DNA of 64,000 nucleotides from Candidatus Bathyarchaeota archaeon (GTDB lineage Archaea; Thermoproteota; Bathyarchaeia; Bathyarchaeales; Bathycorpusculaceae): NCBI GenBank assembly GCA_963811105.1, contig CAWEPZ010000011.1, forward strand, positions 1,088,001 through 1,152,000, in the 5' to 3' direction. The position numbers and the translations under genes are program-made. The notes under the pieces were generated by a model. That model ran no database searches. It saw nothing but the letters and a program-made list of their open reading frames with translations, and was not told the origin of the DNA. This document shows positions 6,126 through 25,847 of the stretch, piece after piece. Every line of letters starts with the position of its first letter. Position 1 is the first letter of the stretch.

Positions 6126-6145
6126 GACACAGCAACCAAAATCAA

Positions 6146-6166
6146 ATTTCTTTTTTTCTTTTTTTC
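6146..6166 (+). terminator. Oligo-T archaeal terminator
   Basis: tttctttttttcttttttt directly after the stop of 3522..6125. Confidence 0.5.
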
Positions 6167-6832
6167 GCATTTTTGCTCAAAAACTATAATCGGAAGTCTA
6201 TTTCGTTTCGGTGTTTATCCAAAAAACTATTGCAGGGATTTTCTTCATTACTCAATTCTGAGTAATTTTAGCTGGGACCTCTCCTTAGAATAACCTCAAA
6301 TTTAATTGATTTTGGTCAGAACTCATTTTTCTATGGCTTATTGATTTGAAGATCCTCGTGGAGTTTTACTCATTTTTGACAATGAAACATCGAGTGATTT
6401 TGATAGTGAAAAAGAAAAACTGTGTTATTTCAGATCTTCGGCGAGACGACCTCTGGTTTTAGCTTTAGGTCAACTTTGCTGAGGTACAGCGCAGAGGGTT
6501 AGATCTAAACACATGTCTAAATTTAACGCGCAGGACCTAATCACTTTAACCATAGCATAGGTTCACCAAATCTTTGAAAAGTCCAAATGTGAACCAAATC
6601 AGGTTCAAGCTGCATGCAATTTGACAAAGTCATTTTAGAAGCAGGCTAATCCTTTTTCATAATGACGGACTGAAAAGTGAATTAAGTCTATTCCCTAAAA
6701 TCCCATTTCAGGGACGAACAGCGAGATTTTGGAAATCAGAAGCGCGAGTATTAGTTAGGATTGTGGATTCTTAAAGGTTAAATAAATATTCGTTCGATAA
6801 GTAAGAAAAAGCAAGTCAAGTTTACTTCGCCA

Positions 6833-8602
6833 ATGGTGAGCAAGTACATGCAAGAAAGAAAAAATACAAGCTTATTATTTAGGTTCCTGAGTAAAGTCGT
6901 TACTCCGCTAAAGATTATCACTCCAATTCTATTGTGTCTATTGCTTTTTGCGGCACTATTAACGCCGCTGAATGCTGCGCTTAGTCCTGCTAGGGATTTG
7001 ACTGGAACATGGCAAAGCGCTTTATCTGAAAAGTACTATGAAATGGATCCTTCTGATCCAAGCACACGGATGAATGATGTAACCGTAACATATACTATGA
7101 TTATAACTCAAAGCGGTAATTCGATAAATATAGTATTGAATATTGACGAATCAAGTTGGGTAACTGATAGCGCGTACTCGAATGAGTACGGCATTTCTGG
7201 TGTTCCTCCGGTTGGATTTAATCAAATTGTGCTTTCTGGAACGGTTTCGAGCGCAAGTTTTACCGCTGACGAGCTAGGCGCAAGCACAGGAAACGCAGAA
7301 CATTTAGCTGGATCATTTACCACGGACATTATAACAGCAACCCTTACAGGTCCATACGAAACAAGCGATACCAACGGCTTAATCGTGTTGCGGTCAGGCT
7401 CATCAGCCACAATGCCTCCCACCACAACTCCAGCTTCAACTCCCACACCCACACCAGCGCCCGCCCTGCCAACATCAGACAATTTAGGCATCGTTTCACT
7501 AATTCAAGGTACAACATGGTTTTCTGTAACTGGTACGCCAGTTACCGCTCAAACTCAAATAGGTGCAGGAGCAGAAATTCAAACAAGCGGCGACAGCAAT
7601 ACAGTAGTCGGCGTCAACTATCCTGACAATGGAGGAACCGCCTATTTGGGCGCAAACACTCACGCGGGATGGGTGTATCTTGAGCCACAAACCGATCCAA
7701 TAACTGGAAACATAACGTACATTGCAGTGCCACAGACAACAAGTTGGTCTGATAAGGCGTTAGAAAATGAAGAGTTTGGTCAAGCCGGATTGCAGCTTTC
7801 AATAGAAGTCGGCTTCGGGCTTGGCGTGATGCTGGTGACCGGAGCGCCACTATCCTTAGGAGGCGCATTAGTCGTCGAGGGAACAATATTGCTGGGAACA
7901 GGCATAGCATATGTTATTGAACAGTTGTCTCCGCAACAAGGAACCTATGACGTGAGACCTGTAGCAGTGCCGCAAGGACTAATTATGGGTGATGGAACCG
8001 AGTATGTCGTGATCGTTTCCAATGAATCGACAACGATCCAAGTCATGGACGGCTCAGTTATATTCGTCGATCAATACACCAACAATACAATAACCGTACA
8101 ATCGAACCAGATGCTGACGCTTCCCTCTGGAGTACTAACAGGATTCAGCAACTTAGACTTGCAATTGCACATATCTGCCTACGATGCGTCTTCAATAGAC
8201 CAATGGTGGATACCAATTGCTACCCCTACACCAATGATTGTTACGGCGTTGCCGACAAATTCGGTAACGAGCGACAACACGAATCTTCTGTCTCAACCTA
8301 CGTTTTTAGGGCCTCTTATTCTGATAATAGTCTTTGTCATAGCCGCGGTATTCCTTTCTGTACGAAGAAAACAAACTAGAAAACCTCACACGTCAAGCAA
8401 AAATGCAAATAATCAAAACGGCCTGCAGCAAATCACGAATGAGCCCAAGAAACCAACAGCGCAAACCACCGAAACAATACCTCTGCCGCCTAACGACCTG
8501 AATACAACGCAACCGAAGACTGTCTTTTGTCCCAATTGCGGGAACCAACTTCGCAACCCCACAAAGTTCTGCCCGTCGTGCGGCTCGGACCTAAGCCAGT
8601 AA
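6833..8602 (+). CDS. Membrane-anchored protein with FecR-like extracellular region and cytoplasmic zinc ribbon
   Basis: Signal peptide, P/T linker, FecR-like motifs (GTEYVVIV...TTIQVMDGSV), TM helix, CPNCG...CPSCG. Confidence 0.75.
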   Translation: MVSKYMQERKNTSLLFRFLSKVVTPLKIITPILLCLLLFAALLTPLNAALSPARDLTGTWQSALSEKYYEMDPSDPSTRMNDVTVTYTMIITQSGNSINIVLNIDESSWVTDSAYSNEYGISGVPPVGFNQIVLSGTVSSASFTADELGASTGNAEHLAGSFTTDIITATLTGPYETSDTNGLIVLRSGSSATMPPTTTPASTPTPTPAPALPTSDNLGIVSLIQGTTWFSVTGTPVTAQTQIGAGAEIQTSGDSNTVVGVNYPDNGGTAYLGANTHAGWVYLEPQTDPITGNITYIAVPQTTSWSDKALENEEFGQAGLQLSIEVGFGLGVMLVTGAPLSLGGALVVEGTILLGTGIAYVIEQLSPQQGTYDVRPVAVPQGLIMGDGTEYVVIVSNESTTIQVMDGSVIFVDQYTNNTITVQSNQMLTLPSGVLTGFSNLDLQLHISAYDASSIDQWWIPIATPTPMIVTALPTNSVTSDNTNLLSQPTFLGPLILIIVFVIAAVFLSVRRKQTRKPHTSSKNANNQNGLQQITNEPKKPTAQTTETIPLPPNDLNTTQPKTVFCPNCGNQLRNPTKFCPSCGSDLSQ

Positions 8603-8867
8603 TTCACAAAAGCCAAAAATAGCCATTACGCCACTGCATTGCCCTTTCTCTTTATTATGTGTTGAACTAGGTAGGTACCACTGATTTGTTAGGTCTTACA
8701 AGGTGGTGTTCTGCTACGTCTCCACTCAAAAATTTTTAGACCCTGAATGCCTAAATTGTAGCCCTATTTCCTATTATGGAATTTTAGAAAACATAGTAGA
8801 ACCTAAGAGAAAGGAGTTAATTCTGTCTTATTTGATACCTCTGTTGATTAGTTATGTTAAGAAAAAT

Positions 8868-8891
8868 GTGCAGGGGGTGGGATTTGAACCC
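8868..8891 (-). repeat. att site (copy of tRNA-Leu 3' end)
   Basis: 23/24 identical to 11598-11621. Confidence 0.85.
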
Positions 8892-9052
8892 TTTCCGAGT
8901 CCGGAAATGTCTCATGGTTCCCTTCTTTCTTCCTAGACTTTTTTGTCGAAAAAGTCAGATTTTACTATGGAGTCGTTGGATAATAGATCAGAGGTCGTTT
9001 ACTATTTTTATGGGGAACGAGTCTGGATAGCCATGATTGTTAGCGCCGTCTC

Positions 9053-9388
9053 CTACAAAAAAGACGTTTTGTCGTACGCGCTCAAGGTTATGTCATAGGT
9101 GCAAGATTCCCCGCGGTATAGTTTTCCGGGTGGAGGCGGGACGTAGGGATTCGGTTTTGGTTCTGCGTCAATGGCACTTATTATGTCCCATTCTGCAAGG
9201 ATTCCTCTCTCGGTTATCTTCGCCACGAGTTGGTTCGGAGCTTGGTCCGTTGGGACAATCTGAACCCAGCAATCGACGACGTTACCCCATACTGGAACGA
9301 AATTTGGTCCTATAGGGGGAATCTGCCACGAAAGTATTGCCCTTGCCCTGACCACAAAAGGAGCTTGATGACATGGTTGAGAATGCAA
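9053..9388 (-). CDS. Hypothetical protein or fragment in mini-element
   Basis: 111-aa ORF; start uncertain, no family recognised. Confidence 0.3.
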   Translation of the reverse strand: MHSQPCHQAPFVVRARAILSWQIPPIGPNFVPVWGNVVDCWVQIVPTDQAPNQLVAKITERGILAEWDIISAIDAEPKPNPYVPPPPGKLYRGESCTYDITLSAYDKTSFL

Positions 9389-9429
9389 CCGCCATTTTTT
9401 CTGTCAATGAGCATTACAAATATAATGAG

Positions 9430-9579
9430 CTACTTTTTAGGGTCCTTTGCAATTTTGTCATTAGCAAGCAAGTATTCGACATATTCTCTCAATGTGCGGT
9501 TGGTTTCTTTTGCTCTTCTTTGAATGTCTTGGTGAACTTTGTCAGTGACTGTCAAGCATTTGTATCCTTTACGAGGCAA
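9430..9579 (-). CDS. Small ribbon-helix-helix-like DNA-binding protein (49 aa)
   Basis: Manual translation from TTG: MPRKGYKCLTVTDKVHQDIQRRAKETNRTLREYVEYLLANDKIAKDPKK; strand-helix-helix pattern; below ORF-track cut-off. Confidence 0.65.
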   Translation of the reverse strand: MPRKGYKCLTVTDKVHQDIQRRAKETNRTLREYVEYLLANDKIAKDPKK

Positions 9580-9817
9580 AAAAAGATCAAACTCCTTCTC
9601 CGTACTTTACCGTACGATTATATATATAATTAACGGTTTAACAGTTTGACTGAACATGTAATTAGCGGTTTTGCCGAACGATTGAATATTCAATTGACGG
9701 TGAAGCCTTGCAGAGAAAATGCAAGAAAGCTTCAGAGCTGGAAAAGAAGAAAATTCTCGTACATTGTGAAACTTTAAATAAACATACGTACGCTAACTAA
9801 CTTGAGAGGGAAGCAAA

Positions 9818-10132: not shown

Positions 10133-10258
10133 ATGGCTAAATGTCCCACTTGTGGTAAAGAAGTTGCGGAACCTGACAAATTTTTAGAAAATGATTGGTT
10201 CCACATCGAAGCTTATACATGCAAAAACTGTAACTGCTATTTCAAAGTGACGAAATAA
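10133..10258 (+). CDS. Zinc-finger microprotein (41 aa)
   Basis: MAKCPTCGKEVAEPDKFLENDWFHIEAYTCKNCNCYFKVTK, two CxxC motifs. Confidence 0.65.
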   Translation: MAKCPTCGKEVAEPDKFLENDWFHIEAYTCKNCNCYFKVTK

Positions 10259-10589: not shown

Positions 10590-11535
10590 ATGTCAGAACA
10601 ACAAACAAATGAAGTTCTGCGGAGAAACCAAACTGGCGACGTCAAAGGAAAAATCATCGAATACGCCTGGTGGCTCAAAAAAGACGGAAAAAGCGACTCA
10701 ACAATCCTAGGAAGAACAAAAATACTCAGAGTACTCACAAAACGAGGCGCAAACCTCTACGACCCAGAAAGCATCAAAGAAATAATAGCAAAACAACCTT
10801 GGAGCAACGGCAGAAAAAACAACGCAGTCGACGCCTACTCATCATTCCTAAGAATGGTAGGCGGCAACTGGGAAGCACCACTACTACCAAACAATCCGAA
10901 AGCTACCCTTCATCCCAAAAGAAACCGAAATAGACCAACTTATTGCAGGATGCAGCAAACGCATGGCAACCTTCCTACAAATGCTAAAAGAAACAGGCGC
11001 AAGATGCGGAGAAATCTGGCGACTCAAATGGGACGACATAGACTTCGAAAGCAAAGTCGTAAACATAACACCCGAAAAAAACAGCAACCCACGAGTAACC
11101 CATCTCAGCAACAAACTCCTCGAAATGCTCAGACAACTGCCAAAAAACTATGGAGAACAGAGTCTTTTCCCACCCACACATGCGAGTCGACAACCACGCC
11201 GTAACACTTTCAACAACAACGAAAACGAATAGCACAGAAAATCGGTAACCCAAGACTACTAAAAATCCACTTCCACACCTTCAGACACTGGAAAGGAACA
11301 ATGCTCTACCACGAAACCAAAGACATGTACTACGTAATGCAAGCGCTTAGGCCACAAAAACATCAAAAACACGCTCCTCTACGTCCAACTCGAAGAAGCA
11401 CTATTCCAAGGCGAAACAGACTACATCTCAAAAGTAGCTAAGACTGAAAAAGAAATCTGCAGCTTAATCGAAGCAGGCTTTGAATACGTCACTGAATTTG
11501 AAGGCTCAAAATCTTTAGAAAAAGCAAGACTTTAA
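10590..11535 (+). pseudogene. Tyrosine recombinase/integrase, interrupted by several frameshifts (pseudogene or sequencing error)
   Basis: Pieces across frames give TGARCGE (R), PEKNS (K), HTFRH, LGHKN and TLLYVQ (Y), the full catalytic set. Confidence 0.9.
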
Positions 11536-11595: not shown

Positions 11596-11683
11596 TGGTG
11601 CAGGGGGTGGGATTCGAACCCACGAACGCCTACGCGATAGGGTCCTAAGCCCTACTCCGTTGACCTGGCTTGGAGACCCCTGC
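11596..11683 (-). tRNA. tRNA-Leu(TAG), CCA encoded
   Basis: GCAGGGG acceptor stem, TAGGG-CTTAGGA-CCCTA anticodon arm, long variable arm, GTTCGAATC T-loop. Confidence 0.95.
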
Positions 11684-11844: not shown

Positions 11845-11921
11845 GCCTTCGTAGCCTAGCCCGGTGGGGCGTTACCTTGGTAAGGTAATGGTCGCGGGTC
11901 CAAATCCCGCCGAAGGCTCCA
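11845..11921 (+). tRNA. tRNA-Thr(GGT), CCA encoded
   Basis: GCCTTCG/CGAAGGC acceptor stem, TTACC-TTGGTAA-GGTAA anticodon arm; T-loop TCCAAAT. Confidence 0.93.
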
Positions 11922-11932
11922 ATTTCCACCTT

Positions 11933-12178
11933 CTATTCAATAAAAGAGACGTGATTTAAGCTCTTTTGATTTTGCTGACCGTTACTAAATTTTGTAACAT
12001 GGTTACTAAATTCTGTAACACTTAATCCGTTGATGCCAATTCCCCGCAGCTCGCAATAATGCGATTTGAGTCGGAAATCCTCAACCTTTCCGTTAACTCG
12101 ATAACGCATTAGAAGTCGGTAATCTGCGTCAAAGCGCTCAGGGTTCCTAAGAAATTCAATTTCCGTCTTGCTTAACAT
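11933..12178 (-). CDS. Small protein, candidate int(N) fragment of the split integrase
   Basis: 81-aa ORF ending 11 bp from attL in the same orientation as int(C); not in frame with att as sequenced. Confidence 0.45.
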   Translation of the reverse strand: MLSKTEIEFLRNPERFDADYRLLMRYRVNGKVEDFRLKSHYCELRGIGINGLSVTEFSNHVTKFSNGQQNQKSLNHVSFIE

Positions 12179-12435
12179 TCTATCGCCTAAAATTAGTTTG
12201 AGACGCTGGCATATTTAACCTATTTATTTTCCAAAAAGCTCATTAATTTACACAAATTTTCGCAACAAACACTACTATGGAGATTTGGGTGAACCGAGTA
12301 TAATATAGTAAGTGATTCACCCTGTTTTCTATAGGATAAGAGTCTTTGCAAATAGTCATGACAAATTTCTTGTAAATAGAGGGCGTAGAGGTGTCAAAAT
12401 ACGGGCCATTCTTTCTTCATGACAAAACGTCTCCT

Positions 12436-12812
12436 TCAATGGATTTCCAAAGGTTCACGGTGTTGAACATTTTGGTGTTTTTTCTTTTTAGCGTGAACGT
12501 TTCTGTAAGCTGTATTTTTTTGTCCCAAATGAGTTTTGGATTCACCAGTTTTATGAAAGAACCAAAATCGCATGTATAGCGCACATAGAAGAAAAACAAC
12601 TACAAGCGCTATTACACCAAAGCCCATTATACATCCAAAGGCTAATGTTACAGCGGAGCCTCCGAACAATAATGCGATTGAAATCAAAAATAAAAATCTG
12701 TAATAATCATCCTTTAGCTTGGCTGCCGCAGAAATTAGACCTTGCGGTAATGAAAAACATCCTAAACGACTTTTGACTATCTTGTTTCCTGTTTTCTTGA
12801 CCGTGTTTCCAT
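12436..12812 (-). CDS. Small 2-TM membrane protein, paralog of 15653..16042 (start region frameshifted)
   Basis: Frame reads ...SRLGCFSLPQGLISAAAKLKDDYYRFLFLISIALLFG... upstream of the ORF-track start 12687; ATG at 12812 is out of frame. Confidence 0.65.
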
Positions 12813-12993
12813 CTCTATATTGTTAAGCTTGACTAAATAGTTGCCAAACTACTAACAACAATGTTCAAACAGCTCCTAAAACGCTACTCGCTGAATACCC
12901 ATAACCATGCTTTCAAGTAATTGGAATAAAGAAATGTATGAATACTTGGAATAGATTTCTTTATTACTTAGGGTATGGTTATTAAGAATAAGA

Positions 12994-14050
12994 ATGCTGA
13001 ATTCTATGTGTCACAAGAATATTCTCAAAGTATGCCCTTGTGAAGAAAACTGCAAACAAAAAAGACATACAGCAGTCAATTTAATATTAAAAAAGGGCGC
13101 ATGTACTTCTAAAGATTTGCATAACTTTCTTTATGGCAAATTGGGTGTTTATGCCCTCAGAAGCAGCATTGAATATTTAACCACTGGGAAGTGCAAATTG
13201 GTCGATGTTTTTGGTATTTCTACTAACCAAAAGCCACCACAGTTTGGAAAAAGAGGACGGTTATTTTATTCAAGAGCATTTCCGGCAACATTTTTGAATA
13301 GCGTCGTTGTAGATCTCTTGGCACCTCTACAAAAAAGGATATTGAAAAAATTTTCGGACCTTAATGATCAGATTTATTATTTCTCGCTATATGATCTTCG
13401 GCGTATAGTACCTTCGTCCGGAACCGAGATTGACTACGCTCTTGGAAGATTAGTCAGGCACGGTTTATTATGCAAAGTTATCTTCTTCAGGAACAGATTT
13501 TTACATTAAACCAATTCATGTCTCGAAATTTACAAAAGAGGAAAAGCAAGTAGTAATCGATAACAAGACAGAATATGCGGTTGCAAAAGCTGTTCATGAG
13601 CTTATTATGCACCTTTACCCAAAAGACATTATCACAGATTATCATGGCAGGATTCGACCTAAAACTCAAGATATTTTAATAGTCACCGGAGGAATGTCTT
13701 TTGACCTTTTTTACCAATTCAGAGATCCAATAGTTGGTAAAAGTTACTTGGCCGTAGATGTTTACACGAGATTTCCAGTTAGCGGTTTTATAATTAACAC
13801 TTTTGCTAAAAAAATAGAATGGGCTAAAACCGGACCAAGGAAAAATTCTACTAATTATCTCAAAGATAAAACACATGGAATGATAGTATTCCTAAATGCT
13901 ACCAGGAAAGCTATGCCAACCGCTAAACGATTAGAAATTAAGTTACTTCGTGTTTTTGATGATTTAAGAATTGATTATAAAGCAATACGTCAAGAAATAG
14001 AAAAGAACAATGATGGTTGCTCAACAGACATATCAATTAATACTTTTTGA
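12994..14050 (+). CDS. Cys-cluster/wHTH protein with C-terminal restriction-endonuclease-like fold (frameshift ~13487)
   Basis: ORFs 12994..13509 and 13607..14050 join via an open frame SGTDFYIKP...AVHELIM; C-terminal SFDL...LAVDVY...GMIVFLNATRKA pattern. Confidence 0.6.
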
Positions 14051-14056
14051 TTTTTC

Positions 14057-15065
14057 TGCTGTGTTGAATGACTTAAATAATAGTTCTGTGCAGAACGGAT
14101 AGATTATGAGTTATTTAAGAGATTGGAATAGCTACAACGAAGCGTTAGTGAAAAGAGGCTTAATTCTTCTTGATTTAGATTTTGTTGCAAGCTGGTCAAG
14201 AGAACCTAAAGCAATGAACGAGAGCAAAGAAGGCGGCAAGATACCGCTACCCAGAATCCTTCATCAAGCTATTAGCGGTCGTGCATACCTATGTTTTGCC
14301 TTACAGGCAACTGGAAGGCTTCATGCGAGGTTTAAGCCAGTATGTTGATGGCCTAAAAGCGCCAGACTACATACCATCAGATGGCGAATTGCCAGAATGA
14401 AAGTTGACGTGGCCTCATCTGTAGAGTTGGATAAAGACGTCACAATCGCTGTGGACTCAAGCGGCATAAAAGTCTCAAACCGAGGGGAACGGATCCATAA
14501 GAAGCGGAGAGTCCAGAGAGGCTTCATTAAAGTGCATATTGCCGTTGATACGAAGACCAAGCAGATTTTAGCAATTGAAATTACTAAAGAGGACGTTGGA
14601 GACGGACGCGTGCTTGGTAAACTGGTTAAGGGTTCAACTGGTATTGCGAACGTTAAGAAATTGATTGGTGATGGAGCATATGATTCTAAGAACAATTTTA
14701 GAATGGTCAGCGGAGTTGGATATTGAGCCTTTGATTAGGGTGCGCAAGAACGCTTCTTTGAAAGGTGGAGGTTGTATGCCTTGCAAGTTCACTGTTATGG
14801 AGCAACTGGGCAGTGATGGCTGGAAAAAGGAAAGGGTTATGGTTACCGGTGGATGGCTGAATCAGCTTTCTCATGTTTGAAGCGGACGTTTGGCGAGTAT
14901 ATTTGCGCTGTGAAGTGGCCTAACATAGTGAAAGAACTACTTTTGAAAGCTTCAATTTACAATCTTTTCATGAAAATGAACCTCAATCAATCTCTAAATT
15001 AGAAAGCGTAGGAGAAATGGTTCAAACTGTCACCCAAAGACAACTCTCAGTCATTCAACACAGCA
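14057..15065 (+). mobile_element. IS5-family insertion sequence (ISH1/IS903-like), 1009 bp
   Basis: 17-bp perfect TIRs tgctgtgttgaatgact (14057-14073) and agtcattcaacacagca (15049-15065); 8-bp TSD gatttttc (14049-14056, 15066-15073). Confidence 0.93.
14106..15002 (+). pseudogene. IS5-family DDE transposase, frameshifted
   Basis: DWNSYNEALVKRG, AVDSSG, KVHIAVD, IGDGAYD, W.AESAFS..KR.FG motifs spread over several frames. Confidence 0.9.
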
Positions 15066-15347
15066 GATTTTTCCAGTACACGTTTTTGGCAAAGTAAAAC
15101 TTAGTCAACTTCAAATCTTAACCGTCAACTACCTGTTAGGGTAACAATTACTGCCATCTGTGATGAGGTACCTTCGACCTTATACAGATAACCCAGTTCC
15201 CTTTATGCCCATAAAGGGGGTGAAAATAACGCCCTGTTAATAGCTCGATCTAATGCCCGATTTGGGCTTAGTTCATTCAACTCACATAAACTGTTTTGGA
15301 GCCTCCGACCAATACCAAAAAAACAATTGAGGAAAGGCTGGCTAAAC

Positions 15348-15521
15348 AGTTAATTGTAGTTGAAGTTAAAACGGTCGAATTGCCAAAAGGAGCTCAGTTT
15401 GTCTCTCTCATCTAAACCAATTCGGGAGGCTTGGGCTCATGAGAAAATTAAACCTGAATATGCTCCAAAAATAGTTTATAGGAGTTAAAGCTAAGACGGT
15501 CGGATTGGCAAAAGGAGCTCA
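15348..15521 (+). repeat. Imperfect 49-bp direct repeat pair
   Basis: 15348-15396 vs 15473-15521, 41/49 identical by manual alignment. Confidence 0.75.
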
Positions 15522-15652
15522 AATTAAAAGATGCATCAATTTCTAAGGTTTTGCAAACGGAATCTAAAAGTCGGAAATATAGAAATGTCTCCCGTACAGA
15601 AGCTCGAAACTTTCGGTTATAACCTTGATAGAATTCTGGACAAAATTTTGGT

Positions 15653-16042
15653 TTAACAATAACTCAAAACACATCTGAATGCTCGCTGCGTTTTATTGCT
15701 TAACCAAGTCTCGTTGTCTTCTTCTTTTAAGATGCGATAATCATCAGCATAATGACCTTTTTTCTCATAATTTTCTGGAGAAAAACGGAAACGTATGTAA
15801 AGGGCAGAAATGGCAAAAGCTATAACTAAAGCAACGACAACAACCCCAAATGCAGGTCCATAAGCAATCGCTACTATGGTTGAGCTGAATAACAAAGCCA
15901 CAGTCATTAAAAGTAAAAACTTGCAATAGTCATCTTTTAGCTTGCCTGCAGCAGAAATTAGTCCTTGCGGTAACGAAAATCGATTTAATCGACTATTATC
16001 TTTCCTTTTTCCGCAAGTTCTTTTACCCGTTTTCTCACCCAA
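15653..16042 (-). CDS. Small 2-TM membrane protein, paralog of 12436..12812
   Basis: Shares FSLPQGLISAAxKLKDDY and the TM hairpin ending ALY.RF.F. Confidence 0.7.
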   Translation of the reverse strand: MGEKTGKRTCGKRKDNSRLNRFSLPQGLISAAGKLKDDYCKFLLLMTVALLFSSTIVAIAYGPAFGVVVVALVIAFAISALYIRFRFSPENYEKKGHYADDYRILKEEDNETWLSNKTQRAFRCVLSYC

Positions 16043-16168
16043 TTTTAACTGTCAAGTACTAACCACACAGTAACAAATACCTTAATACTTAATAAACTTA
16101 ATGGTTAATAAGATGTTGAGAAATTAACAACCAGACAGTAGCATTTAAATGCTTAGAGTACATTAATC

Positions 16169-18335
16169 ATGACCATCATGAGCCTAACTAACCAATTCAT
16201 AGATAGTTACGTTGGGAATCCTCAATACTTAGAATTACTTAGGGCAATGCTTGGGCTAACGCAATACGAAGGAACTGCTTTCATTGCTCTTGCTTTAACG
16301 GGAGAGGCTTCAGCTACACGAATTGCAGATACCGGCGGCATCCCCCGACCAAAAATCTACTCAACCCTTAATTCATTGAAAGACAAAGGCCTGGTTGTGG
16401 AAGTCCATGAGCAATACAAAGTTAATGTCAGTCAAGTTGAAGAACTATTGCATAAGTCAAAGGATTTACTCGACGGTTTCCAGAAATTTATTGAGCGAGT
16501 GCTTATATATTCCAGAAGCTCCGCTACAAAAGTCCAGGCGATAAAATCTATTCTTAAGGAAGCCATCCAAAGTAGTGGTTATCATAATGTCCCAATCGAC
16601 AGTGAAACTGCTTTTCACGATGGCAGGTTCGAAATGTACATTGAGCGCGCATTTTTGGATGGTCATCGCACACGAGATCTAAACTACAGCAGATTCCGAG
16701 AAATAGCCACTAAGAAATCGTATTTTATTGATGACTTAATCGAATCAAGCACCTCAGGCATTAAGGTTTCAATAAACGTCCTTTCAGAAGAGAAATATCA
16801 AACTACGAGCAAAGATATGCTTATCCCAGGAATTTTAGCAACAGCTGCGACATTCAGATGCGAAGCTGCGATTTTAATTGTGCTTCCAGAAGTGAATATA
16901 ATTGAAAGATTTGAAAGGGTTCAAGCAAAATGGGCTCCAAAACTATTTGTTATGTCAGCGCACGAACCTGCAATCGAAAAAGATGTATATCGAATTCTTT
17001 CGGATCTTGACAGAAACTGGTTAGACGCAAAACGACAAGTTAATAAAATTGGAACAGAAATTACGGAGCTAAAAATTCAATTAACATCAACACTAGATTC
17101 AACCTACCAACATGCTCGAGATGTCACCAATAAGGGTGGAAAACATAGGGAGCGCTACTTGGAAATTCTTGAGAGAATTCAAGCTGATCTAATTGCCTCA
17201 GAAGACATGTTATCAACAATTAGGAAAGATTTTGAGCCTATATCTGAGAGACTTGAGCAAGCTGGTAAAATACCTGACTCCGACCAAGTGACGATAATTA
17301 GTAATCGAGTTGATTCTTTGCGGGAAGACCTCAAAAGGAAGATTCAAGCGCGAGATCAACTACTTGAAGATATTTTAGCTCACATGAGAGGCGGGAAAGC
17401 ATACGTTGAATACGGATATGTTACTAACCCATTCGTCTTTACTGTTCCTCCCGAATATCCGAAAGATATTGTGAATCAATCAGAATCAAGACAACGATTA
17501 GAGACCTTCTTGAAAGATATGATGAAAGGGTCCTCACGTAATTTTGTTTTTGTATGCGCTGATGAAGGAATGGGAAAAACACATTTTCTGAACTTTTATG
17601 CAAAATCACTTAATGATAAAAAATTCGGAAACGCAATAGCCCTTCGATTGAACTGCAAGCCCAAATCAGACATTATTGACTTATACACCCAAGTTCCTTT
17701 GGCAATTTCACGTCTCGTTAAAGATAACATTCTCAAGGCCGAAGCCATAAAGACACTGGAAATGGCGGGTACTCCTAAAAATATTAATGACTTTATCAAC
17801 TTGCTTAGACTATTAAACTCAAATCTTGCGGAATCTGGGTTTCAAGGAATATTTCTGTTAATAGATGATTTTGAAAATACATTACCCACCGAAATATCAG
17901 ATTTGACACCGCGTTCAATTCTTCAGTTGACGGATATGGCAAAATTAGAAAACATGGGAATAGTGGTTGCCATGAGAGCTAAAAGTTGGGATTTGTGGAA
18001 TAAAGAAATCAGAAACAGGATACCCAAGATTGGCAGAATAAGTGTAATCAAACTTGAAAAGCTAGGGATCTAAAGAGACGCATGAATTACTGAAATACAG
18101 GTTGAGTGAAAAAGATGTTGAAAGGCAAAAAGAACCGCCTGAATTTGATTTATCCGTTTCAGACAAAATATGCGTCATTGGGCAAGGCATTCCGAGGCAA
18201 ATAATCTCAATTGCAAGAGAAGTTTTTAGAATTGCTGTTCTTGAGAATAAGAAAATAACTCAAGAACTCGTCGAAAGTGCAAAAAAACAAGAAGCAATTC
18301 TGAGTAGAGACTTATCCCAAAGTTCCAATACGTAA
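16169..18335 (+). CDS. TrmB-type HTH / coiled-coil / P-loop (AAA+/STAND-like) ATPase fusion, frameshift ~18065
   Basis: LGLTQYE...GIPRPKIYSTLNSLKDKGLV (TrmB HTH); NPF motif, ADEGMGKT Walker A, LLIDDFE Walker B; frame continues GSKETHELLKYRL into 18102..18335 (GIPRQII). Confidence 0.8.
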
Positions 18336-18424
18336 TATCCCACATATTCTAAACTTTTGTATCTTTTCCGCCTGAATAAGACCTCGACTGCCACGTCCTG
18401 TTGAAAGGTTACATAGAAATATCA

Positions 18425-19320
18425 CTACGTACCCATTTCTTCTGAAGCTTTCAACGTGTGTTCCCTAAGCTCTTTTATCGCTGGAGAAAAATAGTGCCTC
18501 ACGAATATGCTAGGTGGAATTCTTCCGCATAACAAGTCCGCCTCTTGTGCAACGAGGCCATGCTTAATCATAAAAGTGCCAAAGTAATCACGTAACTCAC
18601 TGATCCGACTGGGGATTTTGTGCCTATGCAGCCTTTTTATCAATCCTGGGTAAGTAACACTTTGACTCTTCACAATTTCTGCAACTAATCTTACAGGTAC
18701 AATAGAAATGTAGCAGTTTTTGGTTCCCTGTAAGAACTGTTTCTTATAACGGAAATGTTCCAAGATTCCAAGTTCAGGATTAAAGTATTCACTTAATTTC
18801 CCTTGCTTAGAGAGCTCGATTATCAAATTAAAGCTCGCAATTCCCTCACCTTCCCGCAAACCAGTTACCTTCAGAAAGTTCAGCAGCAGGTTTTCTTCTG
18901 ATCTAAGAATAGGCTTAACTTTACTAAGCCATTCTCCAATGTCAGCGTTCTTATTGTTGTAGATGTCGGATGAAGGCGGCAAACACATCCGGTCTATTTG
19001 TTTTAACCCCATAACTTTTCAAAACTGCTTTTAATTGTTCGTAGAATCCAATGTATTTAGGCATTATTATTGGGCTCTTGATAACGTCGGTCTTAACAGT
19101 TGATTTAAAAGAATTGATCTGTCCGATATTTCCTGATTCAAGAGTGTATATGTACCGCTTAGCGTAACTCATAACTTTGGGCGCGGTCGGACTTTGCGTA
19201 CTTGCCATAAACAAAATTCTTGAATGCAACCCAATCAAAACTTGTAAAGTTCGGATAACCGATTTGATTCGAGCCTTGGTAAGGTAATGGTCGCGGGTCC
19301 AAATCCCGCCGAAGGCTCCA
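18425..19320 (-). pseudogene. SSV1-like integrase C-terminal part int(C), 2 frameshifts
   Basis: Frame opens through att (WSLRRDLDPRPLPYQG...); TGLREGE, GTKNCY, ELRDYF, CGRIP, RHYF motifs. Confidence 0.85.
19274..19320 (+). repeat. attR (3' half of tRNA-Thr)
   Basis: 47/47 identity to 11875-11921. Confidence 0.95.
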
Positions 19321-19386
19321 CTTCTGTTTTAAAAAAATCGGTTATTTGCTCGAAATTTAAATACGGTAATCACTAATAGCTATATT

Positions 19387-21138: not shown

Positions 21139-22947
21139 GTGGTAACTATTGTTTTGCTTTCTATAGTTTTCTTTGGCATAGCGGCTTGGAATGTTGGTTC
21201 AATTAAGTATCCAACTACAACTTGGCAAAGTACTCAAAAAGAAAGTTTCTATGTGAATTTAGGTTCAATGCAGCAAGTCCAAACAGTGTATTTCTGGGTT
21301 AAAAGCGGCAACGCCACTGCAACAATATATTCAGGTTCTCCAGGAAACTGGAGTAATGCAGGAGAATTAGTTCTTCAACCAGCTGGAACGGACTATGCAA
21401 TTTGGCAATCGTCAAAAATAAACTCAAACACTCAATTTTTGAGCTTTGATGTTAACGCATCAAATTATGATTCTCGGCCTAACTTTTATTGGGTTGTACC
21501 TAACCCATCTGACCAGGAACCTTCACCTTTCATCCAAATTTCAGAAATCGGCTTACAAAGTCAAAGCAACAATCAAATTCCAATCATTGGAATTACAGGT
21601 GAAAACACAACAGACTCATCCTTAACTAAACTTGTTGATGAGCAAAGTTCCCTTGAAATTCCTCCAACTTACATGTCCAAGATGTATTTTGACGAGGTCT
21701 ATTTCGCTAGAGCTGCAGAAAACTATCTGCATAACCAGATACCTTTCGAAAGAACTCATCCACCGCTAGGAAAGCTGATTCAAGCATCAGGGTTAGCGGT
21801 TTTCGGCGATACCCCTTTTGGCTGGCGAATTATGGGTGTGATATTTGCTGCTTTGATGATACCGTTAATGTATCTACTGGGAAAGAAGCTGTTTGGAACA
21901 TGGATAGGAGGTTTCTCTGCAGCGTTCCTACTTACTTTTGATTTTATGCACTTCACAATGGCGAGAATTGGCACGGCTGACACTTATGTTGTTTTCTTCT
22001 CGTTGCTATCACAGTTATTTTTCCTTATTTATTTCATCAATGTGGTTAAAAGTGGCTGGAGAACGTCTTTAGTTCCTCTATTCTTAGCTGTAATTTTCTT
22101 TGCACTGGGATTCTCTACGAAGTGGTTTACAATCTTTGGTGCGGCAGGTTTGCTTGTTTTGCTTATAGCGATCAGGTTCAAAAACATTGTAAAGCTAAAG
22201 GGCAGCTTGGCTGATAAGTACGTTGCCTTCTTTGACTATCCCGCCTTATTGCTTCTTGGTTTCATAGGGCTTTCAATCATTATTTACTTCATAACTTATA
22301 TTCCCGACATGCTTGCTGGCGATTCCTTCCTAAAGATTCTCAATTTGCAGAATGCAATGTTTGGCTTTCATTCAAGCTCAACCATAACTGATCCGTCGTC
22401 GTCTCCTTGGTGGTCGTGGCCTTTCATGTTCAGGCCAGATGGAATTAGTGTACCCCGATGGTTTGACATATCATATTTGCCGAACAATGTTGATTCAACC
22501 ATAACCGTTTTCGGTAACCCAGCTGTCTGGTGGATTGGCTTTGCAGCGGTAATTGTAATTGCCGGTATGGTCATACATAAAAGCGGAATTGTTCAAGACC
22601 TAAGGTCTAGAAAACGCTTACATAAACAGCTTAATCTGCATCAAACTGATTTACCTATTGTCTTCATTGCCGTTGTCTTCTTATTCTCGTGGCTACCTTA
22701 CATTGTAATATCCAGAGCGACATACATTTACCACTTCTATCTGAGTGTTCCACTACTTTGTTTAGCTACAACATACTTCATTAACAAATACTGGAGCACC
22801 CCCAGAGGAAAACTTGCTGCAATAGCCATATTCGCTTCTACAGCGGCATTATTCATAGTATTTTACCCAGTCATTTCAGGCATGCCCGTTCCAACTTGGT
22901 ACATAAATAATTTGAAGTGGTTCCCCAGCTGGCGCTTCACGGGATGA
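21139..22947 (+). CDS. Dolichyl-phosphate-mannose--protein mannosyltransferase-like (GT39/PMT)
   Basis: YFDEVYF, THPPLGK, FGWR, STKW, SSPWWSWP, GNP, YIYHF motifs. Confidence 0.88.
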   Translation: MVTIVLLSIVFFGIAAWNVGSIKYPTTTWQSTQKESFYVNLGSMQQVQTVYFWVKSGNATATIYSGSPGNWSNAGELVLQPAGTDYAIWQSSKINSNTQFLSFDVNASNYDSRPNFYWVVPNPSDQEPSPFIQISEIGLQSQSNNQIPIIGITGENTTDSSLTKLVDEQSSLEIPPTYMSKMYFDEVYFARAAENYLHNQIPFERTHPPLGKLIQASGLAVFGDTPFGWRIMGVIFAALMIPLMYLLGKKLFGTWIGGFSAAFLLTFDFMHFTMARIGTADTYVVFFSLLSQLFFLIYFINVVKSGWRTSLVPLFLAVIFFALGFSTKWFTIFGAAGLLVLLIAIRFKNIVKLKGSLADKYVAFFDYPALLLLGFIGLSIIIYFITYIPDMLAGDSFLKILNLQNAMFGFHSSSTITDPSSSPWWSWPFMFRPDGISVPRWFDISYLPNNVDSTITVFGNPAVWWIGFAAVIVIAGMVIHKSGIVQDLRSRKRLHKQLNLHQTDLPIVFIAVVFLFSWLPYIVISRATYIYHFYLSVPLLCLATTYFINKYWSTPRGKLAAIAIFASTAALFIVFYPVISGMPVPTWYINNLKWFPSWRFTG

Positions 22948-23685
22948 CACAACAAAATACTATCAGCAAAACAGTTCAGGTCTCAGTGGTTTTTCCAGCG
23001 TTCAACGAAATTGATTTTTTGCTTATAGCAGTTGATAAAACTACTCAAGCTCTAAATGAGTTTACGAGTTCCTACGAAATAATAATAGCCGAAGACGGTA
23101 GCACTGATGGCACAGCTGAACGCACCGAAGAGATAGCGCAAAAATACCCGTATGTCCGGCATATTCACCGGGAAAAACGCTTAGGAAGAGGAACTGCTCT
23201 AAAAAATGCTTTCAAGCAAAGCAAAGGTGAAGTTTTGGTTTATATGGACTTGGATTTAGCTACTGACCTTAAAGCTCTTAAACCTCTAGTTGAAGCTATC
23301 ACTGTTGAAGGTTACGATTTTTCCACCGGTTCCAGAATGCTGCCTCAAAGCAAAGTTGAGCGTAGCCTACGCAGAAGCATCAGCTTCCAAATCGTATAAT
23401 TTCCTTGTGCGGCACATTGCAGGTTCAAAACTCAGGGATCATCAATGTGGCTTCAAAGCTTTCAAGAGACAACCTGTTTTGCAATTGCTTGATGAAGTTG
23501 AGGCGACTCATTGGTTTTGGGACACTGAGATAATGGTGCGTGCTCAACGCCGAGGATATAAAGTAAAAGAGATTCCAGTTGAATGGAAAAGCGGCAAGGG
23601 TACGAAAGTAAATCTGTTTAAAGACTCATTGAACATGGGTCGCCAAATAATGAAGTTATGGTGGAAACTCAAAGTCAAAGAATAG
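22944..23685 (+). CDS. GT2 polyprenol-phosphate glycosyltransferase (DPM/DPG synthase-like), frameshift ~23385
   Basis: PAFNE, EDGSTDGT, YMDLD, GSR then DHQCGFK, WFWDTE in the next frame; ATG overlaps the upstream TGA. Confidence 0.88.
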
Positions 23686-24302: not shown

Positions 24303-24710
24303 ATGTCTTATTGTCCGAAATGCGGCAATAAAGTTGAGGAAACAATGGCTTTTTGCCCACACTGTGGAACAGCGCTAAAAGTAACAGCAGCAACCGGCCA
24401 ACCTGTACCGGCACCTTCAAGGCCATATCGGAGACAAGAAAAAGCAGAAAAGAATGAGAAACAAGAGAAGAATCAACCTCAAGAGAAGGGTGAAAAACAA
24501 GAGAAAAGTGAACGTGGCTTTGTCGGTTTTCTGATAGGTGGCTTGATACTAATCACTATAGGTATTTTCTCTCTGCTGGAATTAAACGGCAGTTACTTTA
24601 GTTCAGGTCAAGACTTAGCTGTCATGCTGTTCATAATCGGCATAATCATCATAATTGGTGCTGTTTATGTAGCTATGACCGCCCGCAAACATTTCCCCGC
24701 CCCCTCCTAA
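24303..24710 (+). CDS. Zinc-ribbon domain membrane protein
   Basis: CPKCG...CPHCG, EK-rich linker, two TM helices. Confidence 0.8.
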   Translation: MSYCPKCGNKVEETMAFCPHCGTALKVTAATGQPVPAPSRPYRRQEKAEKNEKQEKNQPQEKGEKQEKSERGFVGFLIGGLILITIGIFSLLELNGSYFSSGQDLAVMLFIIGIIIIIGAVYVAMTARKHFPAPS

Positions 24711-25847
24711 ATCAGCCATCGTAGAAACATTCGATAAAGTCTATGCTCTAATAGCGTTGATACGTTTTTTCTTCCGATTATACGATAATAGTTTTTTCCT
24801 GCTGCTTCAACTAAGTCACCGATGTCATATCGCGGTAACATGCATGAAGAAATTATAAGACTTCCCCAATCGCCGCGCTTGAGTTCATGAAGCATTTTTA
24901 CACCCCTGCCAGTTGCAACTTCAAAGAGGTAGGAGTCATAATTTGGTGTTACATATGGATAGTCGTCCAGTTGCTGGGCAAAAACGCCCTCGGTGGCTGT
25001 GTACATTTCTACAACTGGAGCTTTACCAAAATAGCTCTGAAGCACTGGACCATACCTGTATTGTATTTTGCGCACGCTAGTGCAGAAGAGAGCTTGAAGC
25101 TTCCATTAGGTCAGCTGGTTTTTTCCCATGCTTCCGTTTCATGTACCTAGCGAAAGCTAAGATTACAGGGGTTACACCCATGGTGGCAGTGACATCTTGA
25201 TTTATAGCCTGTTGATAGACAAGTTCAAACCGTTTCTCCCAATCCTTACTTGTTAACTCTGAACCTAAGGCGTCAATTTCTTCTTGACGAGGCAGAAGGC
25301 TCACCCTTTCAAACATTGGGTTCAGCCGCGCGTAGGTGCCTGAACTGTAGCCATAAGCGACTTCCTTGCCTTCAAAGTTCATTGTGTGAACATTTGACGG
25401 AAAATTCAAGTTAAGAATTGAACCAGTGAACACGTCGAAGTTTTGTTTTTTGATGGCAAAATTGATTAATCCTCTGGCACCGCAAGTAAAAATTTGTTTT
25501 AGGTGCGTTTGGGTGGCGGGCAAAACTTTGGATGTTCCTGTTGAGCCCCTTGTCATAACCCAACATTCAGGCGGTTCATTCAAAATTGCCTTGTAGTTTC
25601 CTTCCTTAACTTGCGCAAGAAAAGGAGTAAGTGCTGAATAGTTGATGACAGGGAAGCTTTTTTGGTAATCTGAAATGCTGTTTACCTGAGGGGCGTTATG
25701 ACTTAATCCATAATCAGTGGTAATGTACTTTTTAACTAAGTCAGTGAGCACTTGCTCTTGCGCTTGCTGTGGATTCCGCAGGGACTCGTACCAAGGACCT
25801 ATGATTGGCTTTAGAATATTGTTAATGCCTTCATCATCTGGCAACAT
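24707..25847 (-). CDS. GH3 auxin-responsive/acyl-adenylate family protein, frameshift ~25105
   Basis: TRGSTG P-loop-like, YTATEG, RYDIGD motifs; halves join as DLWKLQALFCTSVRK. Confidence 0.82.

Follow-up and report, generated by a model that had tools for sequence, protein, structure and literature searches.

An integrated element at tRNA-Thr in a Bathyarchaeota genome, with paralogous membrane genes divergent from unrelated wHTH proteins

The element at tRNA-Thr and its cargo

An integrated element of 7.4 kb occupies positions 11875-19323 of the window (the whole 64,000-nucleotide stretch of Candidatus Bathyarchaeota archaeon DNA analyzed here). It lies at a tRNA-Thr gene and is delimited by 50-nt att repeats, with a broken integrase inside. 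Each of two small membrane genes is divergent from a larger partner gene, and we refer to each such pair as a module. The features are as follows.

11845-11921, plus strand: tRNA-Thr (GGT), the integration target (ARAGORN; Rfam tRNA, 62 bits)
11875-11924: attL, 50-nt direct repeat over the 3' part of tRNA-Thr, 98% identical to 19274-19323 (repeat search)
11933-12178, minus strand: 81-aa ORF, function not assigned (ORF list)
12436-12822, minus strand: membrane paralogue 1, predicted two-TM hairpin, open frame of 128 codons (paralogy, topology)
12823-12974: divergent spacer 1, with inverted repeat 12925-12939/12951-12965
12975-14050, plus strand: partner 1, with a Cys cluster, two wHTH domains and a PD-(D/E)XK-like C-terminal domain (frames and homologues; P0024 model)
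14055-15067, plus strand: IS5-family insertion sequence (ORF list, Pfam, NCBIfam, repeat search)
15068-15652: non-coding stretch with 53-nt direct repeats (repeat search)
15653-16042, minus strand: membrane paralogue 2, predicted two-TM hairpin, 129 aa, TTG start (ORF list, paralogy, family search, topology)
16043-16168: divergent spacer 2, AT-rich, with direct repeats CTTAATACTTAATAA / CTTAATGGTTAATAA at 16081-16111
16169-18335, plus strand: partner 2, with a TrmB wHTH, alpha/beta region, coiled coil and ORC/Cdc6-type P-loop ATPase (Pfam, NCBIfam, relatives, frames)
18425-19238, minus strand: tyrosine integrase, archaeal phage-integrase type, in two overlapping frames (PF16795, phrog_5127, ORF table)
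19274-19323: attR, second copy of the 50-nt repeat (repeat search)

The integrase adjoins the attR border and matches the phrog_5127 integrase (E 2.7e-8) and PF16795 (E 5.6e-6; 26.8 bits, cut-off 27). As the preliminary description of this DNA had it, the element carries no capsid or conjugation genes; Pfam and PHROG searches returned none, and no PHROG structural genes. The 81-aa ORF, which encloses a 21-nt tandem repeat at 11981-12020 (TRF), has no match in Pfam, PADLOC, NCBIfam or PHROG, and the non-coding stretch, whose direct repeats (15344-15396 and 15469-15521) are 83% identical, has none in Rfam. The IS5 copy stands between module 1 and module 2; it ends in 19-nt perfect inverted repeats flanked by TTTT on either side, and its transposase is in at least four frame pieces.

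Among the cargo genes, only membrane paralogue 2 retains an uninterrupted frame. Because the reading frame is broken in membrane copy 1, in each of the two partners, in the integrase and in the IS5 transposase, the modules in this genome are probably dead and mostly pseudogenes. Between 24 and 64 kb of the window most ORFs run without a break. Splitting is not confined to the elements, however: it affects at least one gene elsewhere (GT2, 22917-23685) and possibly GH3 at 24707-25847. Some of the frameshifts could therefore stem from the assembly, in which case the real organism could carry intact modules.

The element resembles the archaeal cryptic integrated elements, a class defined for Thaumarchaeota iMGEs, as the available part of PMC6563490 presents them: its size lies within their 2.6-98 kb range, and it shares with them tRNA integration, direct repeats, an integrase as sole hallmark, wHTH and Cdc6-like proteins, and the lack of capsid and conjugation genes. 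It differs from the class as described there in host lineage (its cargo relatives come from Bathyarchaeota-labelled records), in the repeated pairing of a membrane gene with a wHTH enzyme, in its heavy frameshifts and in the IS5 insertion.

The membrane protein family and the two partners

The two membrane paralogues are identical at 49 of 93 residues (53%, E 2e-29) and are the only copies in the 3.49-Mb genome. Paralogue 1 has no ATG, GTG or TTG in frame ahead of the conserved FSLPQGLISAA motif, the sole ATG near its start being in another frame, and it is probably a pseudogene. A profile search of 1.84 billion representatives gave 15 hits at E <= 0.001. Setting aside the protein of this window and one of 851 aa with eight stretches, which is probably spurious, leaves 13 small relatives of 53-116 aa. 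All 16 aligned family members have a single hydrophobic block of 48-55 residues and net-positive tails, and we predict a two-helix hairpin because this pattern fits it; the paralogous two-TM minus-strand proteins first described at the locus are thereby borne out. By these similarities the protein represents a genuine conserved family, but a rare one, present in 3 of the 332 genomes of the taxonomic family. As part of the reading that we favour on balance, its members would be proteins of ~80-130 aa that combine a basic tail at the N-terminus, an amphipathic helix of conserved sequence (LISAxxKLKDDFLRFLLL) and a predicted two-TM hairpin with both ends cytoplasmic.

The only significant DNA match between the modules (12683-12789 versus 15906-16012, 78.5% over 107 nt) lies in the membrane gene. 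Of the repeated two-gene module in the preliminary description, the head-to-head layout does occur twice, but the membrane gene alone is repeated. A shared spacer motif proposed there occurs exactly twice (expected 0.01, for a pattern picked after being seen); in module 1 it is not non-coding spacer but the first 13 coding bases of partner 1, and in module 2 it stands at the start of an 8-codon ORF. The window spacers are AT-rich and about 125-165 bp long. Partner-1 homologues without a membrane gene nevertheless have the stretch 12846-12974 conserved ahead of them.

Partner 1 is a member of an unannotated family with 28 homologues and has no sequence-level match to any solved structure or Pfam. 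Its true start is 12975 (MVIKNKNAE), a start shared by 9 of the 23 homologues aligned, and it contains at least two frameshifts, near 13033 and 13480. The fold was taken from a model of a relative, P0024 (82% identical), rather than from the window protein. In that model two wHTH domains precede a PD-(D/E)XK-like domain, and the N-terminal part, formed by the Cys cluster and the wHTH domains, is not CARF. The modelled C-terminal domain (~residues 195-335) superposes on PD-(D/E)XK nucleases that are joined to sensor or DNA-binding domains, namely the nuclease domains of Card1/Can2/VC1899, NucS/EndoMS and AF1548, and the top Foldseek rows were Cdn1, NucS and Can2. The match to 1xmx has Z 8.3 (rmsd 2.6, 110 residues aligned), followed by 7bdv (8.1), 1y88 (7.9) and 2vld (7.8), although Z values of about 8 fall within the tool's own reported range for unspecific best matches. 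Conserved acidic residues of the family are E208, D243 and D261 (P0024 numbering); unlike in PD-(D/E)XK nucleases, a Tyr holds the canonical Lys position, with K278/K279 conserved nearby. The REase-like fold suggested earlier for this protein is backed by these matches of a modelled relative.

Partner 2 would be ~715 aa when intact, with a frameshift near 18070. Its Pfam matches are TrmB (55.3 bits), AAA_22 (29.6 bits, cut-off 27), AAA_16 and ATPase_2, with Walker A GMGKT and Walker B LIDDFE, in agreement with the TrmB HTH and P-loop ATPase first noted. It was previously likened to STAND ATPases, but it has no NACHT or NB-ARC match and no sensor repeats and is nearer to ORC/Cdc6-type AAA+ proteins: it matches the orc1/cdc6 model TIGR02928 weakly (5.8e-4), and JGI names its relative P0006 a "Cdc6-like AAA superfamily ATPase". 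Neither a Cdc6_lid nor a C-terminal winged-helix match was found. With BrxC/DUF499, as covered in the available part of PMC12839542, and with the Orc1/Cdc6 initiators it shares Walker motifs, AAA_22/AAA_16, a wHTH and a coiled-coil stretch; unlike in these proteins, its wHTH is N-terminal and of TrmB type, and it is much shorter than BrxC (1200-1300 aa). There are no BREX genes near partner 2, and PADLOC gave no BrxC match.

Recurrence of the layout and partners without the membrane gene

Four membrane loci are readable, from three genomes, the two window copies not being independent of each other. In all four the membrane gene is divergent from a different wHTH-like protein: beyond the window, a 415-aa protein with a PadR-like match, 226 bp away (G445, contig C102), and a 491-aa protein with a MarR-like match, 187 bp away (G596, contig C2), both matches being below the Pfam cut-off (18.3 and 24.6 bits versus 27). 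The wHTH partners have no mutual similarity by BLASTP, and the four spacers (126-226 bp) have no common motif and differ in their repeats. The preliminary description of each window copy as head-to-head with a different plus-strand DNA-binding gene stands. A wHTH match occurs in 1 of 50 ordinary window ORFs, but the association is weaker than it looks because mobile islands are probably much richer in wHTH genes than this chromosomal baseline. Separately, a membrane homologue (P0021) and a protein 71% identical to partner 2 (P0002) both have a longest contig of 1,222,181 bp; adjacency of the two was not seen.

The partners also stand alone. In the overall count, 5 of 5 readable partner loci elsewhere lack the membrane gene; it is absent from the 1.5-kb flanks and genome-wide for all four full-length partner-1 homologues in related genomes (G454, G030, G462 and G036), and from both readable loci of partner-2 relatives (L014 and L013). 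Window positions 12846-14015 match G454 at 82.8%, and DNA homology ends ~25-35 bp short of membrane gene 1. The membrane protein cannot be kept as the conserved core of the system, as originally envisaged.

Both partner families lie in defence-island-like neighbourhoods in other genomes. PADLOC matches at the partner-1 loci include an OLD/GajA/AriA-like protein (G454, 9e-17) and PDC-M41A (G462, 8.7e-17); at the partner-2 loci they include a dCTPase (dCTP deaminase; L014, 5.9e-93) and pAgo_I (short pAgo; L013, 5e-140) with an APAZ-type partner. The membrane pair of G596 abuts an Mrr_cat plus TIR-like protein (TIR effector, 5.7e-10). No PADLOC model fits the membrane protein or either partner beyond HTH, and none covers the pair, in line with the undescribed system that the preliminary description supposed; the best match of the membrane protein, to a 4TM effector, is not significant (E 0.011).

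Candidate roles of the pairing

The data show an element with defined boundaries, the relatedness of its two membrane genes, the domains of their partners, a recurring head-to-head layout in two further genomes and partners without a membrane gene. From these we draw one picture, which we hold to be somewhat more probable than not: a decaying cryptic element whose cargo is two unrelated wHTH-fused enzymes of a type common to archaeal defence islands, each with a facultative membrane add-on, not an obligate core, that shares its divergent control region.

Alternatively, the pair may form a two-component defence or abortive-infection system, in which the conserved hairpin protein acts as a shared effector, released or activated by swappable wHTH-enzyme partners that sense invaders. 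Such a system, which we consider unlikely, would account for the recurrent head-to-head layout with unrelated wHTH-like partners, for the defence-type neighbours around both partner families and the G596 pair, and for the want of a PADLOC model. It sits poorly with the partner loci that lack the membrane gene, the homology that stops just short of it, the rarity of the family and the broken window copies; moreover, defence systems usually combine a conserved sensor with varied effectors, and this layout is the reverse. The membrane protein does resemble small transmembrane defence effectors in being short, in residing in mobile or defence DNA and in adjoining a regulator or sensor. Known small membrane counterparts are the CBASS/Pycsar 2TM-4TM effectors, small membrane toxins and prophage Sie proteins. 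It has no sequence relationship to any of these and no cyclic-nucleotide synthase partner, and it is divergently transcribed, not part of an operon.

Prophage superinfection-exclusion proteins are encoded beside repressors, and by analogy the modules might serve maintenance or replication, partner 2 being a replication initiator and the membrane protein an exclusion or immunity factor. Partner 2 could equally be the replication protein of the element: its AAA_22, AAA_16, ATPase_2 and weak TIGR02928 matches and the JGI name of P0006 point that way, and in G445 a genuine Orc1/Cdc6 gene (Cdc6_lid, 63.5 bits) comes after the membrane gene on its strand, with an AAA-plus-wHTH gene nearby. Cdc6/Orc1 or wHTH proteins are also frequent in archaeal cryptic elements as candidate replication proteins, according to the available part of PMC6563490. 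The module as a whole is nonetheless improbable in this role: partner-2 relatives adjoin dCTP deaminase and short-pAgo genes, not integrases or origin-like repeats; partner 1 is nuclease-like; within +/-7 kb of the G596 pair there is neither an integrase nor a Rep; and defence, too, makes use of ORC/Cdc6-clade ATPases that have wHTH and coiled coils, as with BrxC in the available part of PMC12839542. Similarly improbable is the lack of any functional link, with an independent small accessory gene drifting among variable regions and wHTH neighbours reflecting the abundance of such genes in the mobile DNA of archaea, a reading that fits the membrane gene as the only part common to both modules, the self-standing partners and the dissimilar spacers, but not the divergent wHTH-like neighbour at every readable locus, the spacers of typical bidirectional-promoter size or the low chromosomal baseline.

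In summary, the cassette-type defence system proposed in the preliminary description retains a conserved family, a consistent divergent layout and defence-like neighbourhoods, but not the dependence of the partners on the membrane gene. An undescribed defence system of a membrane gene with swappable partners is possible but unproven, because the pairing, although seen again in two further genomes, is optional; a defence role is plausible, as a candidate. Under the favoured reading of a facultative add-on, the membrane gene would settle beside self-sufficient wHTH genes and use the same divergent control region as they do. Its expression would be governed by the wHTH protein, and its product would work at the membrane, whether as effector, exclusion factor or tether.

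A probably decaying integrated element at tRNA-Thr

The segment 11875–19323 is bounded by 50-nt direct repeats (11875–11924 and 19274–19323; 98% identical, 7.4 kb apart), the left of which overlaps the 3' part of a tRNA-Thr gene. It holds two modules, each consisting of a membrane gene, encoding one of two paralogous two-TM hairpin proteins, and a wHTH gene placed head-to-head with it, which we call its partner. The features are as follows.

11845–11921: tRNA-Thr, the integration site, overlapped by the left repeat
11933–12178: ORF of 81 aa without an assigned family
12436–12822, minus strand: membrane gene 1
12975–14050, plus strand: partner 1
14055–15067: IS5 copy with 19-nt perfect inverted repeats, TTTT on either flank and a transposase in several frames
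15068–15652: non-coding DNA (585 bp, containing two 53-nt repeats) that separates IS5 from the 3' end of membrane gene 2
15653–16042, minus strand: membrane gene 2
16169–18335, plus strand: partner 2
18425–19238: tyrosine integrase of the archaeal phage-integrase type, adjoining the right repeat, in two frames

Three traits mark a tRNA-integrated archaeal cryptic element: one of the direct repeats overlaps a tRNA gene, an integrase sits at one border (PF16795 at 26.8 bits against a cut-off of 27, E 5.6e-6; phrog_5127 integrase at 2.7e-8), and no capsid, packaging or conjugation families are detected among the element's ORFs by Pfam and PHROG, within the reach of those libraries, as the preliminary description had already said of capsid and conjugation genes. 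An Rfam search returned two tRNAs and nothing else, and scans for sigma-70 promoters and terminators stayed at background level. In one account of Thaumarchaeota, cryptic integrated elements are described as ranging from 2.6 to 98 kb, with the integrase as their sole constant gene (PMC6563490). The non-coding stretch 15068–15652 lacks any ORF or Rfam match; its repeats (15344–15396 and 15469–15521) are 125 bp apart and 83% identical.

A second, 2.7-kb mini-element occupies the neighboring tRNA-Leu (11596–11683, minus strand), where a 24-nt repeat at 8868–8891 matches 11598–11621 at 96%. It encodes an integrase in at least three frame pieces (10590–11441; PF00589, 46.9 bits) and two small ORFs, one NikA/RHH-like (9430–9579) and one a zinc ribbon (10133–10258).

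We counted at least 10 frame breaks within the two elements (8.8–19.3 kb): one each in membrane gene 1, partner 2 and the tRNA-Thr integrase, two in partner 1, at least three in the IS5 transposase and at least two in the tRNA-Leu integrase. The other ~53 kb of the window consists largely of unbroken ORFs with strong Pfam matches. Indel errors in the assembly could also break frames, and two genes outside the elements bear on this, a GT2 glycosyltransferase lying in two frames (22917–23685) and a GH3-family gene that may be split (24707–25847); decay of the elements is nonetheless the likelier cause.

A rare membrane hairpin family and its divergent neighbors

The two membrane proteins are paralogous, as first supposed (49 of 93 residues identical, E 2e-29), and they are the only two copies in the whole 3.49-Mb genome. 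Copy 2 starts with TTG and its frame is unbroken; copy 1 is open for 128 codons without a start codon before the conserved motif, and the nearest ATG lies in another frame. The preliminary description spoke of a repeated two-gene module. What is repeated is the membrane gene and not the module, since the sole significant DNA match between module 1 (11925–14054) and module 2 (15068–18420) is a 107-nt stretch inside that gene (12683–12789 against 15906–16012, 78.5%).

A word-index protein search with copy 2 found only itself, and a search of the genomes of 60 relatives with a single membrane protein gave a best E of only 0.0048 or above. A full HMMER search of 1.84 billion representatives with a two-sequence profile (E ≤ 0.001) recovered 15 proteins, or 13 of 53–116 aa once the window's own protein and a probably spurious one are removed; the latter is an 851-aa protein matched in eight short stretches. 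Members share a basic N-terminal tail, an amphipathic LISAxxKLKDDFLRFLLL segment, a hydrophobic block of 48–55 residues with a central G-C/P-x-x-G turn and, usually, a basic C-terminal tail, and the family pattern appears in all 16 aligned members. As judged from sequence, this layout fits a two-helix hairpin with both termini inside the cell.

The family is genuine but rare. Of 401 genomes drawn at class level, profile searches matched 1, and of 401 drawn at order level, 3; within the taxonomic family they matched 4 of 332 genomes, and within the genus 3 of 120. The true carriers in these sets are the window's own genome and two related genomes, G445 and G596. A match in another relative, G446, was dropped as spurious (antisense to a zinc-ribbon gene). 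No relative occurs among IMG/VR viral contigs, and tblastn with the homologue P0021 found no match among plasmids and phages. A protein atlas gave only a weak lead (0.81), the best PADLOC-DB 2.0 hit was to a 4TM effector at a non-significant E of 0.011, and general, non-exhaustive full-text searching found nothing in print on the family.

Each of the four readable membrane-gene loci (two in the window, one each in G445 and G596) has a head-to-head wHTH-like partner, and the four partners are mutually dissimilar by BLASTP. The divergent layout with differing wHTH genes, first remarked in the window, recurs in both other carriers. On the 4-kb contig of G445, the membrane gene diverges across 226 bp from a gene for a 415-aa protein whose N-terminus matches PadR and HTH_34 under cut-off (E 0.002–0.003); an Orc1/Cdc6 gene (Cdc6_lid, 63.5 bits) follows the membrane gene on the same strand, and past the partner there is an AAA-plus-wHTH gene. 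The 415-aa protein was not found in the genus's 119 other genomes, and a PDB sequence search with it gave weak hits only (PadR at E 0.071, an unrelated hypothetical protein at 0.43). In G596, the membrane gene diverges across 187 bp from a gene for a 491-aa protein with a MarR/TrmB-type match just under cut-off (24.6 bits); this partner yielded nothing in a PDB sequence search and a weak atlas lead to PsiA/DnaD_N (0.86). It is convergent with a gene for a 528-aa protein (PADLOC TIR effector, 5.7e-10), in which a restriction-nuclease Mrr_cat domain is fused to a TIR/nucleoside-2-deoxyribosyltransferase-like domain (6381–7967 of L043, the G596 DNA). The longest contig is 1,222,181 bp for both P0021 and the partner-2 homologue P0002 (71% identity), a shared figure that hints at a further pairing.

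That these pairings are pure coincidence is the remaining rival. Among 50 ORFs of 120 aa or more elsewhere in the window, one has a wHTH match (E ≤ 0.001), a baseline that favors the association too generously because islands are surely richer in wHTH genes.

The four divergent spacers have no common motif, each having repeats of its own. The shared spacer motif of the preliminary description, ATGGTTAWTAAGA, does occur exactly twice in the 64 kb against 0.01 expected, for a pattern chosen post hoc, but in module 2 it is the start of an 8-codon ORF and in module 1 the opening 13 bases of the true reading frame of partner 1. Translation from 12975 gives MVIKNKNAEFYVSQEYSQSMPL up to the stop, and an MVI(K/N)N start is found in 9 of 23 aligned homologues.

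Two wHTH-fused partners

Partner 1 has at least two frameshifts in the window, near 13033 and 13480, and was searched as a query joined across 13480 by a four-letter step. Its 28 homologues (near-full-length members, 313–373 aa) are all intact, and none is annotated or in Pfam. The AlphaFold model of P0024, a homologue 82% identical to partner 1 (pLDDT 86.1, pTM 0.80), begins with a disordered N-terminus bearing the Cys cluster, continues with two winged helices and ends in an alpha/beta domain. This C-terminal domain superposes on VC1899 (1xmx; Z 8.3, rmsd 2.6, 110 residues), Can2 (7bdv; Z 8.1), AF1548 (1y88; Z 7.9) and NucS (2vld; Z 7.8), followed by Card1, LlaBIII and many restriction enzymes. 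Best Z scores of 7–8 are frequent even without true kinship, so the weight rests on the consistency of the match list: of the best 18 structural matches (Z 8.3–5.6), 17 are nucleases or nuclease-domain proteins, mostly PD-(D/E)XK, the exception being 2ph7 (AF2093) in row 10, for which no function is stated. Foldseek concurs, with Cdn1, NucS and Can2 in the lead. In the predicted model, the domain has the alpha-beta-beta-beta-alpha-beta core of the PD-(D/E)XK fold, which supports the wHTH plus restriction-endonuclease-like fold first attributed to this partner.

Catalysis as a nuclease is plausible from the alignment: E208, D243 and D261 (P0024 numbering) are nearly invariant, yet the canonical lysine position following D261-V is a tyrosine, Y263; the helix that follows carries two conserved lysines, K278/K279. 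PADLOC-DB 2.0 returned either no match to partner 1 or AbiEi at 0.055. On contig C13 of the window's own genome, the nuclease-like domain has a distant stand-alone relative of 139 aa, which matches the family profile at E 1.4e-13; a separate 118-aa wHTH-looking ORF lies just upstream on the same strand (L052, 1420–2216).

Partner 2 is read as one ~715-aa protein broken near 18070, on the evidence of its homologues P0002, P0003 and P0005 (708–721 aa) and P0006 (453 aa). It consists of a TrmB wHTH (PF01978, 55.3 bits against a cut-off of 25.6; PDB TrmB 3qph, E 3.1e-5), an unassigned alpha/beta region, a coiled-coil stretch and a P-loop ATPase (AAA_22, 29.6 bits against a cut-off of 27; also AAA_16 and ATPase_2) with invariant GMGKT (Walker A) and LIDDFEN (Walker B). 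It is not a full-length TrmB regulator (NCBIfam equivalogs reach 31–36 bits against cut-offs of 500–650, over residues 21–92 only) or a full-length orc1/cdc6 (TIGR02928, 18.8 bits against 181.3, over residues 430–500 only), and the four homologues have no Cdc6_lid match. The first reading of its domains thus stands for the TrmB HTH, the coiled coil and the P-loop ATPase. The STAND-like label is unsupported, since no NACHT or NB-ARC match appears at E ≤ 0.1 and there are no sensor repeats; the protein ends ~260 residues beyond Walker A. Partner 2 is better described as an ORC/Cdc6-type AAA+ protein. It was not found at full length in the genus's 119 other genomes, the match of P0002 to plasmids is confined to the TrmB HTH, and PADLOC-DB 2.0 gives only Csa3/CARF HTH segments (3e-4).

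A fair rival reading is that partner 2 serves the replication or maintenance of the element. ORC/Cdc6-type ATPases are reported in one source to work in replication as well as in defense, BrxC being an example of the latter (PMC12839542), and Cdc6/Orc1 or wHTH proteins are described among Thaumarchaeota integrated elements as possible replication proteins (PMC6563490). A preprint further proposes that Cdc6 takes part in excluding archaeal viruses (bioRxiv 10.1101/2022.10.18.512658).

Partners without the membrane gene and the meaning of the pairing

Both partners can do without the membrane gene. Four related genomes (G454, G030, G462 and G036) carry a full-length partner-1 gene; in none of them does a small two-TM ORF lie within 1.5 kb of it, and none has a membrane-family match genome-wide. 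The window aligns with the G454 locus over 12846–14015 (82.8%), and the alignment stops 25–35 bp before membrane gene 1. A 58-nt upstream element (12866–12922) belongs to partner 1, since G030 retains it as well and G462 does so more weakly (12875–12922; 48 nt, 77%). Of two partner-2 relatives in other DNA, the one on metagenome contig L014 (43% identity) has a kinase-deaminase fusion as its divergent neighbor in place of a membrane gene. The more distant one, in L013, aligns over the ATPase module with an hhalign probability of 99%; no membrane-family member lies near it, and a 122-aa membrane ORF in its vicinity proved unrelated (hhalign probability 0.9%).

The neighborhoods of both partner families consistently resemble defense islands over the loci read, an association only. 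Beside partner 1 lie an OLD/GajA/AriA-like ATPase in G454 (PADLOC, 9e-17), PDC-M41A in G462 (PADLOC, 8.7e-17) and a weak TIR-like PADLOC match in G036. The L014 fusion beside the partner-2 homologue joins a kinase to a dCMP deaminase (1564–2829; PADLOC dCTP-deaminase defense gene, 5.9e-93); a tRNA-Arg (5318–5393) lies immediately downstream, and the locus resembles another tRNA-side islet. In L013 (Candidatus Bathyarchaeota isolate BA_23, 4519–9796), the gene for the partner-2 relative, a 749-aa wHTH plus ATPase protein, immediately precedes a short-pAgo pair on the same strand and could be an unrecognized accessory gene of that system; the pair comprises a 484-aa TIR/SEFIR-like plus APAZ-type protein (2e-37) and a 521-aa pAgo_I (5e-140). 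No system model in PADLOC-DB 2.0 is matched by the membrane protein or either partner beyond HTH segments, in line with the initial suspicion that no described system is involved. Elsewhere, the window encodes a NERD nuclease-domain ORF (31004–31543, 79 bits) and a nucleoside 2-deoxyribosyltransferase-like ORF (62286–62744), domains that are common in defense contexts.

The best-supported reading is a decaying cryptic integrated element whose cargo is two wHTH-fused enzymes, probably self-sufficient and of a kind typical of defense islands. Each enzyme would have gained, on its promoter side, a copy of the rare hairpin gene, a facultative add-on that may use the partner's divergent control region and whose product may act at the membrane as an effector, exclusion factor or tether. 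The preliminary description favored a conserved membrane partner with swappable effectors. The unrelated wHTH partners at all four loci agree with this; an obligate system of a conserved membrane effector and swappable sensors is possible, but weakened by partners that stand alone elsewhere. More speculatively, and with the odds well against it, the hairpin protein could be a portable membrane module to which many wHTH-fused DNA sensors or enzymes, unrelated to one another, are coupled through transcription or binding. Archaeal abortive-infection or exclusion systems of this design would form a new modular class, with a constant small effector and a variable DNA-sensing enzyme.

The integrated element, the nuclease-fold protein and the AAA+ ATPase are each a new member of a familiar kind. 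What is new is that a membrane hairpin recurrently pairs with a wHTH enzyme, a pairing seen at four loci, optional, and broken in its window copies. Little has been charted of the mobile elements and antiviral genes of Bathyarchaeia-type archaea, which are uncultured. To this picture the locus adds three unannotated families, namely the two-TM hairpin, the wHTH-wHTH-nuclease-like proteins (at least 28 relatives) and the TrmB/coiled-coil/ORC-like ATPase, the latter two linked to defense-island neighborhoods with OLD-like, dCTP deaminase, short pAgo and TIR-like genes. If the pairing is not real coupling, this is an ordinary decaying island; if it is, it would represent a simple, testable design in which a DNA-binding enzyme controls or recruits a tiny membrane protein.
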